Both the position numbers and the translations under genes were made by a program. A DNA stretch of 64,000 bases from Nitrospirota bacterium. Lineage in GTDB: Bacteria; Nitrospirota; UBA9217. Within the stretch, counting starts at the first letter, position 1. Each line of letters begins with the position of its first letter. The notes beneath the pieces are model-generated. The model was not told the origin of the DNA. It saw only the letters and a program-made list of their open reading frames with translations, and made no database searches. Positions 15,983 through 63,549 of this stretch are shown here, in pieces. The stretch covers positions 1-64,000 of the forward strand of contig CAVUHW010000031.1 of assembly GCA_963741205.1 (NCBI GenBank), in the 5' to 3' direction.

Positions 15983-16100
15983 AAACCACCCTTCACCCCC
16001 GCTTCAATCATGCGGGGGCAGGCTCTTAATCCTGTCCCTTAAGGGGTAAGAACACACTATAGCTCCCTCTCCCGAAGGGGAGAGGGCGGGGTGAGGGGGA
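15983..16100. repeat. Palindromic element, family D (CCCTCTCCC..GGGAGAGGG), with a nested hairpin
   Basis: CTCCCTCTCCCGAAGGGGAGAGGGCGGGGTGAGGGG; nested CCCCCGCTTCAATCATGCGGGGGCAGGC. Confidence 0.75.
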
Positions 16101-19671: not shown

Positions 19672-19840
19672 TGTCATTCCCGTCCCGATATGATCGGGAT
19701 AAACTTCAGCGGGCTTGCCCCGATTCTGATCGGGGAATCCATTTTTGAAGTTTATTTGATAAAAGCCACACCCTGCACTCGCGCTCTCGCACTCGTTGAC
19801 GCTGGGTGCAGGCTGGATACCTGCTTTCGCAGGTATGACG
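19672..19840. repeat. Family A element carrying three nested hairpin modules
   Basis: GTCATTCCC...GGTATGAC ends; inserts CCCGTCCCGATATGATCGGGAT, CTTGCCCCGATTCTGATCGGGG and module F. Confidence 0.8.
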
Positions 19841-26427: not shown

Positions 26428-26513
26428 TAATCCCTCTCCCCTGCGGGGAGAGGGCGGGGCCTGCACCCAGCGCTTACGAGTGCTATGCGCGAGTGCAGGG
26501 CGTGAGGGGGGGA
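26428..26513. repeat. Family D half-element with nested module F
   Basis: CCCTCTCCCCTGCGGGGAGAGGGCGGGG[CCTGCACCCAGCG...GAGTGCAGGGC]GTGAGGGG. Confidence 0.8.
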
Positions 26514-61212: not shown

Positions 61213-62370
61213 TTATTTCTGTCTCGTCGCTTCCCTGATCATGTCCAGGGCGATGACGTTTCGCTGGATCTGGTTGGTGCCTTCGTAGATCTGGAGAATC
61301 TTGGCGTCGCGCATCATCTTCTCGACGGGGTATTCCTTCATGTAACCCGAGCCTCCCATGACCTGGACCGCGTCCGTGGTCACCTTCATCGCGACGTCGG
61401 TGGCGAACAGCTTGGCCATGGCGGATGCGCGGGAGACGTCCTTGGCCCCGGAGTCGATAAACCGCGCCACGGAGTACACGAGTGAACGCGCAGCTTCGGT
61501 CTGGGTCTGCATGTCGGCAAGCATGTGCTGGACCGCCTGGAAGGACGTCACGGGCTGGCCGAACTGCACCCGCTGCTTCGCGAACTTGATGGCTTCGTCG
61601 ATGGCCCCCTGCGCGACGCCCACCCCCTGGGCGCCTACGCCGGTACGGGAGCTGTCGAGGGTCTTCATGGCAACGATGAACCCCAGGCCTTCCTTGGAGA
61701 TAAGGTTCTCCCTGGGGATGCGGCAGTTGTTGAATATGAGTTCGGTCGTGGAGGAGGCTCGGATGCCCATCTTATTCTCTTTCTTGCCGAAGGTGAAGCC
61801 GGGCATGCCCTTCTCGACGATGAAGGCCGAGGCCCCGCGAGGGCCCTTGGACCTGTCGGTAATGGCGATGATGGTGTAGACTTCCGCCTCGCCGCCGTTC
61901 GTTATCCATTGTTTTGTGCCGTTCAGCACATACTCGTTGCCTTCGAGTTTCGCCGTGGTCTGTACGCCGCTCGCGTCGCTGCCGGCGTTGGCTTCCGTGA
62001 GTCCGAAAGCCGCGAATTTTTTACCCGTCGCGATATCGGGAAGATATTTCTTCTTCTGAGCATCGGAGCCGTTCAGAAGGATGGGATAGGTGCCGAGCGC
62101 GTTTGCGGCATAGCTTGTGGAAACCCCCACGCATGCCTTGGACAGTTCCTCGACAGTGATGCAGAGTTCCAGACTCTTTTTCCCCAGGCCGCCGTATTCT
62201 TCGGGGATGAAGAGGCCGAAGAGGTCTGCCTGGGCTATGGCCTTCATGACTTCCAAGGGGAATCTGTTGTGCTCATCGAGTTCGGCCCGTACCGGAACGA
62301 TCTTTTCCTGCGCGACCTGCCGGGCCAGGTCGCGGATCATGATTTGTTCTTCCGTCAGCAGATAATCCAT
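61213..62370 (-). CDS. Acyl-CoA dehydrogenase (butyryl-CoA dehydrogenase-like)
   Basis: FGLTEANAGSD, NGTKQWITNG, KMGIRAS, RVQFG, MRDAKILQIYEGTNQIQR. Confidence 0.93.
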   Translation of the reverse strand: MDYLLTEEQIMIRDLARQVAQEKIVPVRAELDEHNRFPLEVMKAIAQADLFGLFIPEEYGGLGKKSLELCITVEELSKACVGVSTSYAANALGTYPILLNGSDAQKKKYLPDIATGKKFAAFGLTEANAGSDASGVQTTAKLEGNEYVLNGTKQWITNGGEAEVYTIIAITDRSKGPRGASAFIVEKGMPGFTFGKKENKMGIRASSTTELIFNNCRIPRENLISKEGLGFIVAMKTLDSSRTGVGAQGVGVAQGAIDEAIKFAKQRVQFGQPVTSFQAVQHMLADMQTQTEAARSLVYSVARFIDSGAKDVSRASAMAKLFATDVAMKVTTDAVQVMGGSGYMKEYPVEKMMRDAKILQIYEGTNQIQRNVIALDMIREATRQK

Positions 62371-62385
62371 TAAGTCCTCCGAAAA

Positions 62386-62564
62386 AAAATTGGAAATTGC
62401 CTGCACCCAGCGGTTACGAGCCTGCGGCCAGCATTTATGAGTGCATCGCGCGAATGCAGGCTGTGCGGCAGCGCGAGTGCAGGGCGAAGATTAGAAATTG
62501 GAAATTTCAAAATTTTATTGGGAAGGAGATTGCAATATCCAATCTTCAATTTCCAATTTTCAAT
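62386..62564. repeat. Family B heptamer array containing doubly nested module F
   Basis: AAATTGG repeats interrupted by CCTGCACCCAGCG...GAGTGCAGGG (62400-62484); complementary CCAATTT-like arm. Confidence 0.85.
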
Positions 62565-62568
62565 GCTG

Positions 62569-63549
62569 TTACCATCTCACCAACGCCGAGGCCCAGGTAA
62601 GCCCCCCGCCGAAGGCCTCGAACAGAAGGAGGTGATTTTTTTTGATCCTGTTGTCGCGGACCGCCTCATCGAGGGCCATGGGGATCGATGCCGCGGACGT
62701 GTTCCCGTATTTCGGAAGCGTGAGCACGACCTTTTCCATGGGCATGTTGAGCCGCTGCGCCATGGCCTGGATGATCCTCAGGTTTGCCTGGTGTGGAACG
62801 AGGTAGTCGATCTGTTCCGGCTTCACCTTGTTATGCTTCAGCGCCTCCTGCGCCACTCCCTCGAGCGCGCGTACAGCCGCCTTGAAGGTCTCGTTGCCCT
62901 TCATCCTGATGAAGTGCATCCTTTTCCGGATGGTATCGTGGGACGCCGGGTGTTGGGCGCCGCCGCCGGGAACATGGATCAAGTCCCCGAGCGATCCGTC
63001 GGAATGCAGGTGCGTCGAGAGGATCCCGCGCTTGCCCGCGTGCCGTTGGATGACGACCGCGCCCGCGCCGTCTCCGAAGAGAATGCAGGTCGTTCGATCC
63101 TCCCAGTCCGTGAACCGCGAGAGGATCTCGGCGCCGACGAGAAGGATGTTCTTATACAAGCCGGACCTGATGAAAGCGTCCGCGACGGACATCCCATAGA
63201 TGAAACCGGAACACGCGGCATAGATATCGAAGGCGGCCGCCTTTCGGGCTCCGAGCTTTTCCTGAAGCACGCAGCTCATGCTCGGCAGGATCATGTCCGG
63301 CGTCATGGTGGCCACCAGGATGAGGTCCAGCTCATCCGCCCCCAGACCGGCGGCCTTGAGGGCCTTCTTGCCCGCCTCGTAGGCGAGGTCCGACGTTGTC
63401 TGGCCTTTTTCCGCGATTCTGCGTTCCTTGATGCCCGTCCGCTCGGTGATCCACTCGTCGCTCGTGTCCACGAGCTTTTCCAGATCGAGGTTGGTAATGA
63501 CCTTCTTCGGCGCGTACGAGCCGGTGCCTGTTATCCGTGCATGGATCAT
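62569..63549 (-). CDS. fabH: Beta-ketoacyl-ACP synthase III
   Basis: DTSDEWITERTGI, AACSGF, LFGDGAGA, PHQANLRI, GNTSAAS, FGGGLTW. Confidence 0.96.
   Translation of the reverse strand: MIHARITGTGSYAPKKVITNLDLEKLVDTSDEWITERTGIKERRIAEKGQTTSDLAYEAGKKALKAAGLGADELDLILVATMTPDMILPSMSCVLQEKLGARKAAAFDIYAACSGFIYGMSVADAFIRSGLYKNILLVGAEILSRFTDWEDRTTCILFGDGAGAVVIQRHAGKRGILSTHLHSDGSLGDLIHVPGGGAQHPASHDTIRKRMHFIRMKGNETFKAAVRALEGVAQEALKHNKVKPEQIDYLVPHQANLRIIQAMAQRLNMPMEKVVLTLPKYGNTSAASIPMALDEAVRDNRIKKNHLLLFEAFGGGLTWASALVRW

Follow-up and report, generated by a model that had tools for sequence, protein, structure and literature searches.

The closest described relatives of the element reported here are the repetitive extragenic palindromes (REP) and their REPIN and BIME arrangements, which are linked to RAYT transposases and consist of short (20-40 nt) imperfect palindromes, extragenic and lineage-specific, that occur in tens to hundreds of copies, leave no target duplication and are thought to move as single strands. 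REPs and the insertion sequences of the IS200/IS605 family have in common a precise, duplication-free and strand-oriented insertion 3' of a short motif. Module F, the subject of this work, was noticed in a window of 64,000 nt (C31:1-64000) of a 4.27-Mb metagenome-assembled genome (MAG) from an uncultivated Nitrospirota bacterium, composed of 50 contigs, with 56% G+C. It is a non-autonomous mobile DNA element of 43-44 nt, which inserts after a G, frequently within other small repeats, and which includes a sister subfamily that prefers the loop of F itself as a target. We are highly confident that F is a mobile insertion element obeying the insertion rules given below, and we regard it as a relative of REP-type selfish repeats that is unusually small and has not been described before.

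F shares with REP, REPIN and BIME sequences the size, the imperfect palindromy, the copy number, the extragenic and lineage-specific distribution and the lack of target duplication. It differs from them by its position away from RAYT genes, by its fixed flanking G and by a large conserved loop motif which is the preferred target of the sister subfamily. F also occurs as single units or as nested pairs of the same orientation, and no regular inverted doublets of the REPIN type were seen by eye, no dedicated search having been made. Like IS200/IS605 elements and palindrome-associated transposable elements (PATEs), F has asymmetric hairpin ends and inserts 3' of a short motif without duplication. 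Its target preference moreover changes with the element's own sequence, as in IS200/IS605, where a left-end guide sequence of IS608 reads its target; unlike theirs, the F target is only a G in a pyrimidine-rich context. Insertion at a fixed position and in one orientation within another repeat is known for nested miniature inverted-repeat transposable elements (MITEs), for the IS1111 group and for ISPpu9, which sits in REPs of P. putida (PMC8450116, consulted in part). However, those are autonomous insertion sequences of at least 1 kb or DDE MITEs with duplications, whereas F measures 43 nt and guest and host both belong to one tiny family. REPs inside other palindromes are described in the consulted part of PMC3733652 (GTAG-15 of Anabaena, GTAG-23 of Thermomicrobium and CGTC-1 of Halothiobacillus). 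We found no published description of such an element in Nitrospirota, with the proviso that the supplements of PMC3733652 may list more families. What appears new here is thus a 43-nt element with a near-invariant flanking G, at least 15 host families and a loop-specialised sister subfamily, a combination for which no counterpart was found in the literature.

A profile was built from 51 clean copies and searched against the genome with nhmmer (E up to 10), which returned 116 F matches, 72 of them full length, the remainder being halves of interrupted copies or decayed fragments. When the flanks of the full-length copies were joined, those of 39 copies out of 72 matched uninterrupted paralogous repeats across the junction, several of them with 100% identity. 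The existence of these paralogous empty sites indicates that F inserts precisely and without target duplication. Hosts with 100% identical empty sites include hairpin family A (..TCATTCCCG^AATG..), a heptamer array (..AATCCG^AAATCC..), a small hairpin (..GCCATCCG^TGATGGC) and F itself. The empty sites carry a single G where the filled sites have the G preceding F and, in the subfamily with G at position 7 (G7), 59 of the 112 tabulated copies end in A (..CCA in 37, ..CTA in 22) while the flanking G is nearly always present; consequently, not even one base is duplicated. The orientation of F is fixed relative to asymmetric hosts, the same strand of the family-A loop ..GGCTTG^TCC.. being used in all cases. 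The initial proposal of a tiny non-autonomous element, made from the letters of the window, is therefore borne out by precise boundaries and by the empty sites, and the genome-wide search that it called for found the full-length copies mostly in repeats, with no duplication at their junctions.

The window itself contains F at the three loci previously indicated, where 3 matches to the F 5' half pattern were found against 0.01 expected in shuffled sequence; the unit extends 2-3 bases beyond the 3' end first given to it (..CAGGGYG; bases after ..GTGCAGG). The copy at 26460..26502 (plus strand, 43 nt, main type with C at position 7, C7) lies after a G at 26459 within a family-D element, whose left part (26431..26459, plus strand) is a hairpin followed by CGGGG and whose right part (26503..26512, plus strand) begins TGAGGGGG.., and it has 9 junction-spanning empty paralogues. 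An empty family-D element also resides in the window, where an uninterrupted motif had been pointed out near 16078-16100: the stretch 16064..16099 (plus strand) matches the joined flanks of the 26460 copy, with an intact site between 16091 and 16092. The copy at 19769..19812 (minus strand, 44 nt, main type) is inserted directly 3' of a family-A hairpin (..GGTATCCAG^) that occupies 19813..19839 on the minus strand (GTCATACC..GGTATCCAG), upstream of F on that strand; it has 11 junction-spanning empty paralogues, the best with 96% identity over 53 nt.

The third locus is nested, as had been recognised from a diverged copy of F within F. The outer copy is preceded by G at 62399 and its 5' part (62400..62420, plus strand, model positions 1-21) ends in TTACGAG; after base 21 comes an inner copy of 43 nt (62421..62463, plus strand) of the G7/C42 ('GGCC') subfamily, followed by the 3' part of the outer copy (62464..62486, plus strand, model positions 22-44), which ends in GGGCG. 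The host is a heptamer array, with GGAAATT-type units on the left (62386..62399, plus strand), where the outer F was inserted, and with inverted partner units on the right (62487..62564, plus strand). No Rfam match was obtained for 62300-62650 at E up to 1. In public sequencing runs, one contig of 245 nt spans this locus with F present, and 5 contigs from 2 runs skip exactly 43 bases at the inner-F site, these contigs carry un-nested F copies from elsewhere, whose flanks differ, and the runs, the best of which held at most 0.26 of the sampled words, showed no empty allele of the nested locus.

Empty and filled orthologous sites were also compared, as suggested in the first-pass annotation. Matches to the flanking genes were found in 13 relatives, and F is missing from the spacer orthologous to the 62400 locus in all 10 that were aligned (0/10), which are 77-87% identical in the flanking genes and hence represent other species, not strains. 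This spacer measures about 20-46 nt in 8 of the 10, is longer and unrelated in G008 (about 96 nt), and holds heptamer arrays without F, with differing units, in G007 and G006.

The rule that each insertion follows a G, originally noted for the window copies, extends to 68/72 copies of this genome, 104/106 copies in loci of other Nitrospirota MAGs and 107/113 metagenome copies. Of the 178 copies of this genome and other MAGs, 172 have G as the preceding base, 153 a pyrimidine at position -4 and 100 a C at position -3, and 89 are followed by TG. The target of F is thus a YYNG^ context, followed by TG in half of the cases, with G^CC at the left junction and R^TG, AA or CA at the right one. Hosts belong to at least 15 repeat families, including hairpin families A, D and K, heptamer or octamer arrays and F itself. 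Joined flanks with at least 10 BLAST matches in the genome account for 68% of F copies compared with 14% of 400 random intergenic-like sites (after G or C), and those with at least 20 matches for 50% compared with 4%. The claim that none lies in unique sequence consequently holds as a tendency and not as a rule, as about one-fifth of the copies are in low-copy or unique contexts. Likewise, the idea that F targets structured repeats regardless of their family agrees with the many unrelated host families and with F serving as its own host, but has to be qualified by the preferences for YYNG^(TG) and, in the sister subfamily, for YGAG^T. F is almost confined to non-coding DNA, with 60 or more open codons on both sides in only 6 of 72 copies versus 282 of 500 random windows. 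Finally, F does not reflect the amplification of a few composites, since 118 site types are represented among the 289 copies whose flanks were usable, 71 of these types by one copy only.

Column counts were established on 246 distinct sequences from three copy sets (this genome, loci of other Nitrospirota MAGs and metagenome contigs), among which about 30 of the 44 positions are more than 93% conserved. The loop contains an almost invariant TTAYGAG-TG motif together with a hypervariable patch of 3-6 nt, different in almost every copy. As single-stranded DNA, main-type F is predicted to form a terminal stem of 7 bp and, beyond an internal loop, a GC stem of 4 bp capped by a loop of 13 nt (13-16 nt across copies), with energies of -10.8 kcal/mol for the top strand and -12.6 kcal/mol for the bottom strand; the Z-scores against shuffles are modest (-1.6 to -3.0), and the inner copy of the window (62421-62463) folds no better than shuffles. 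Three unpaired bases are left at the 3' end, GYG or, in one subfamily, CYR. Watson-Crick switches occur at 5:37 (C:G 177, T:A 32), at 7:42 (C:G 138, G:C 41) and between 18 and 35, while 6:43 was rejected as a pair within the main family (A:C 28 against G:C 1). Judging from these sequences, the switch from C7:G42 in the main lineage to G7:C42, combined with the C6..G43 found in a variant of genome G024, may reflect a pairing of bases 6-9 with 40-43 beside the 3' cut site, an idea based on two lineages; such a pairing would resemble the guide/cleavage-site pairing of IS608. A separate arrangement was observed at G000:C20:98105-98167, where the 3' half of a full F (22-43), variable loop included, is repeated exactly and directly behind it, which looks like a local duplication or a one-ended event instead of a nested insertion.

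Self-nesting is frequent and site-specific. The genome holds 11 clean nested F pairs, all interrupted between positions 21 and 22, at YGAG^TGC, and one copy in another MAG (locus L041) sits in the second GAG^TGC of F, near the 3' end. The inner copies mostly belong to the G7/C42 subfamily, with T18, A35 and often T5, T12 and A37. A metagenome scan aimed at this subfamily yielded at least 120 stretches, and all sets were pooled for comparison. Among the 122 G7-type copies, 80 follow GAG and 63 lie inside another F at 21|22, as against 10 and 3, respectively, of the 166 copies of the C7 type. For the cleanly classed groups (66/103 versus 7/143), the Fisher p-value of 5e-25 is overstated because the copies are not independent, although the direction is clear. 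The T18/A35 state makes no difference within the C7 type (1/21 versus 6/122). The second favourite host of the G7 type is the hairpin repeat K, at ..GGCGAG^TTTCC.. (19 copies), and sites of the main type, in the loops of A, in family D and in arrays, are used as well. Since the outer copies of nested pairs have diverse loops and diverse flanks, these pairs result from repeated insertions into existing F copies and not from the copying of one composite. The G7 subfamily prefers YGAG^T, a motif present in every F loop, and so acts as a parasite on the main F family. An element-target base-pairing code was also considered and discarded: mutual information with target position -3 peaks at element positions 7, 18, 35 and 42, all of which mark one subfamily.

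Repeat K ends in ..GGCGAG^TTTCCGAAATGTACCGAGGACGACC..; it is filled at G000:C26:363425 and 370479, empty at C23:933-992, and was found at about 19 metagenome loci. A further insert, the 31-nt module H (starting TAGCCTGCTC), follows a G and was located in the F loop after ..ACG^ in 7 of its 8 occurrences (G000:C12:94375-94450 and loci L025, L033, L074, L081, L082 and L105) and once in an array (L038, free). At locus L061, module H is itself interrupted by a further insert.

How F moves can be approached by comparison with known enzymes. We tentatively favour transposition as a single strand by an HUH-type enzyme acting in trans, because the duplication-free oriented insertion, the asymmetric hairpin ends and the target preference borne by the element resemble IS200/IS605 and REPs; we rate this mechanism by itself somewhat short of an even chance, and the explanation as a whole, a mobile element with an inferred HUH mechanism, at about even. 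In this scheme, an HUH-type nuclease-ligase supplied in trans would mobilise F as a single strand, with cuts behind the G of the target and behind the terminal R of F, and the DNA of F would itself encode part of the target choice. The HUH/RAYT-like enzyme proposed in the first-pass annotation thus fits the lack of duplication, the single orientation and the position 3' of a motif, whereas its genetic side found no support, no Y1 gene being linked to F and two F-bearing genomes having no Y1 match.

Several observations weigh against this mechanism. The genome has three Y1 (IS200-like) genes, two in IS605 copies with tnpB and one RAYT-like, and no F was found within about 1.4-2.5 kb of any of them; likewise, tblastn with both Y1 proteins gave no match in 1.12 Mb of 217 F-centred loci from other genomes and metagenomes. 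The terminal hairpins of the IS605 copies (C26 and C34) are unrelated to F, and F is far smaller than IS200/IS605 elements, with one hairpin against two subterminal ones. Classic IS200/IS605 tnpA is commonest in F-free genomes (28 matches in G001, 22 in G002), its counts running opposite to those of F across relatives, and no Y1 match was obtained in the F-bearing G009 (86% complete) and G015 (98% complete). REPs are defined by a tag, GTAG or CGTC, which is conserved and left unpaired at one extremity of their palindrome (PMC3733652, in the part consulted); the columns of the 246 distinct copies show no such tag at either end of F. The covariation at 5:37, 7:42 and 18/35, in itself a weak point in favour, separates subfamilies related by descent, so that it is a confounded hint only, and no complementary rule between element and target bases that fits both subfamilies was found.

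The sites themselves point the same way. F was removed in silico with 35 nt of flank kept on each side, and the junctions were compared with 1,880 other G positions from the same stretches: no enrichment in predicted loops was detected (37% of 177 sites versus 36%), junctions falling in stems, loops and outside structure in 43%, 37% and 20% of cases and the other G positions in 44%, 36% and 20%. These similar shares indicate that structure alone does not explain site choice; the mean unpaired probability is slightly higher at the junction (0.51 versus 0.44, p = 0.001). No orientation bias relative to neighbouring genes was found (24/20/17/10). A weak strand bias, by contrast, fits single-strand transposition without being decisive: the top strand of F lies on the strand of negative GC skew in 46 of the 72 copies (46:26, p = 0.03) of a fragmented assembly, and by eye the orientations are mixed along a 1.7-Mb contig of G019.

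Among the Y1 genes, the RAYT-like one (G000:C23:4963-5808, 282 aa) encodes the only candidate enzyme of this genome. TIRtrons are described as RAYT-like Y1 genes (TIRYT) flanked by long inverted repeats with a GGGGWSAS motif (Di Nocera 2013, PMC3733652, consulted in part). The C23 gene, the only Y1 gene of the genome outside IS605, corresponds to this description insofar as its own bounding inverted repeats of about 20 nt, starting AGGGTCAGG.., are close to GGGGWSAS; these repeats are not F, which counts against a role in moving F. TIRYT is multicopy in some relatives, with up to 30 matches (G019). Within the genus, 8 genomes have F and TIRYT, 1 has F only, none has TIRYT only and 5 have neither, which gives weak support to a connection. 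Against it, TIRYT occurs without F outside the genus (G020, G023), and the F-free members of the genus mostly lack family A too, so that the co-occurrence may only separate a repeat-rich from a repeat-poor clade. Among 6 TIRYT loci in relatives, one has F nearby, at a distance of about 800 nt. Taken together, it is unlikely that this TIRYT is the enzyme moving F. Solo copies of the TIRtron repeat, about 25 in number, occur every 1-3 kb at C26:353853-370980, C24:8381-20558 and C28:15600-20374, as if bounding small cassettes.

The IS605 copies deserve two remarks. The one at G000:C34:18229-20213 (tnpA and tnpB) is located between a heptamer array and a family-A hairpin, so that these repeats have also received a true single-strand transposon; in the C26 copy tnpB is shortened, and the genes between this copy and three nearby F copies are ordinary (glyoxalase, O-methyltransferase, HAD, SnoaL). 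A search for Y2 transposases of the IS91 type (PF04986) gave no match in the genome and was equally silent on control genomes, hence is uninformative.

One joint reading of these data, to which we give a rather low probability, is that F modules are substrates of an unrecognised system that nicks and joins single-stranded DNA. Such a system would cut after G, target choice would be guided in part by the 43-nt DNA itself (for instance by positions 7 and 42), and the conserved YGAG^TG in each F loop would serve as a cognate site for nicking, comparable to the loop of a rolling-circle origin. The sister subfamily would then have specialised on this loop site, as a hyperparasite of a parasite, and module H would use the same trick. 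If true, no smaller elements with DNA-encoded, retargetable insertion would be known.

The explanations that dispense with a dedicated single-strand enzyme fare less well than trans-acting HUH transposition. Foremost, most copies could have arisen by copying, recombination or gene conversion of the host repeats, F rarely moving alone. About 12 composites of an A hairpin and F share one site type in the genome; two of them, at unrelated loci, are identical including the hypervariable loop, and one of these later received an inner F (the nested outer F and A-hairpin host on C13 are identical to the un-nested copy on C34, with unrelated outer flanks, 39/120 and 39/110 identities). In G024, moreover, 9 of 10 fetched copies have an F-like core embedded as a fixed part of one larger repeat. 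Such passive copying nevertheless appears quite unlikely as the general explanation, given the 118 site-type clusters (71 singletons) among the 289 copies, the recurrence of identical site types with differing F loops, the varying position of F within family-A hairpins between genomes and the inner nested copies found in outer copies of diverse loops and flanks.

A recombinase of the IS110/IS1111 type (DEDD) would also insert without duplication and in one orientation, often at REP-like hairpins, and elements of the IS1111 group have subterminal repeats and use REP or attC targets. The genome offers 13 matches to the transposase domain, of several types, and 14 to the partner domain, and the inverted repeats of F are terminal on the left and subterminal by 3 nt on the right. 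However, no full or partial F lies within 1.5 kb of any IS110 gene according to a comparison of coordinates, and the one type whose ends were compared, an IS110 element in three near-identical copies (C9, C5 and C41), has ends and targets unrelated to F. Recombination guided by a bridge RNA expects a specific site of about 10 nt or longer, whereas the F target is degenerate (G with two or three pyrimidines). On the whole, this origin is very unlikely. An integron attC identity was rejected, the RYYYAAC and GTTRRRY cores being absent from the F column counts; attC recombination occurs at G^TT.

We also consider it very unlikely that F is kept for a cell function, as a protein-binding site or an RNA hairpin, with spread being secondary. 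REPs do act in mRNA stability and bind gyrase and integration host factor (IHF), and the conservation of about 30 of 44 positions next to a variable loop patch would suit such a role; the needs of a mobilising enzyme explain this conservation equally well. F is not conserved at the orthologous locus in the 10 relatives, was not found in 11 of the 24 genomes of the family, is not biased in orientation with respect to neighbouring genes and has no Rfam match.

Insertion by replication or repair, for instance through hairpin-primed template switching at stalled forks without any dedicated recombinase, would account for the failure to find an enzyme and could use the shared flanking G, and often the TG that comes after it, as microhomology. 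The extra TG nevertheless belongs to F (..GGGTG|TG.. in filled sites versus one TG in empty sites), template switching would hardly yield full-length copies with exact boundaries in 118 site types, and the shift of target with subfamily argues for specific recognition, so that this route is highly improbable. Lastly, the view of F as a classical MITE of a DDE transposon, to which the short terminal inverted repeat (7 bp), the small size and the many intergenic copies might lead, is close to refuted by the lack of target duplication (empty sites, and A-ending copies after the flanking G), the asymmetric ends with three extra bases at the 3' end, the fixed orientation relative to asymmetric targets and the failure to find any larger element bounded by F halves among the partial matches inspected, which were decayed, nested or F with module H in the loop.

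How REP-like repeats move has so far mostly been deduced indirectly: biochemical work exists only for the RAYT of E. coli, and entire superfamilies (CGTC) are without a known enzyme (PMC3733652, in the part consulted). F provides a clean natural data set in this respect, with exact boundaries, no duplication, a one-base target rule and hundreds of sites, and the contrast between its two subfamilies with different targets is suited to working out the recognition code. Much of the intergenic DNA in these Nitrospirota consists of layers of tiny elements inserted into one another, which matters for the annotation of promoters, terminators and small RNAs in such genomes.

Of the 24 genomes searched in the family, 13 carry F, with up to about 100 copies (106 in G007, 101 in G019); none of the 16 searched in other families of the phylum gave a match. 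In a scan of one genome per species, all of the 80 matches listed were in Nitrospirota MAGs except three with other labels. The viral contigs of IMG/VR (2.9 million) contain 3 F stretches on 2 contigs (loci L277-L279) with one of two search patterns, and none with the other. In G024, which belongs to another genus (loci L266-L274), the F-like core has C at position 6 and a GGGGG 3' end, and is preceded by T in 9/9 fetched copies.

Family A, one of the hosts, has a far wider distribution than F and is much older: 29 of the 41 genomes sampled in the phylum have it, F-free families included. It has the form GTCATTCC-(variable hairpin)-GGAATCCA, with 146 pattern matches in the genome and stems that vary while complementarity is kept, an organisation that presumably parallels the Neisseria dRS3 repeat ATTCCC-N8-GGGAAT. 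The heptamer and octamer intergenic arrays (GGAAATT, GCAATCC and CTTCGTG types) are often arranged as inverted pairs, and a probe of two GCAATCC units (at most 1 mismatch) gave 80 matches in the genome.

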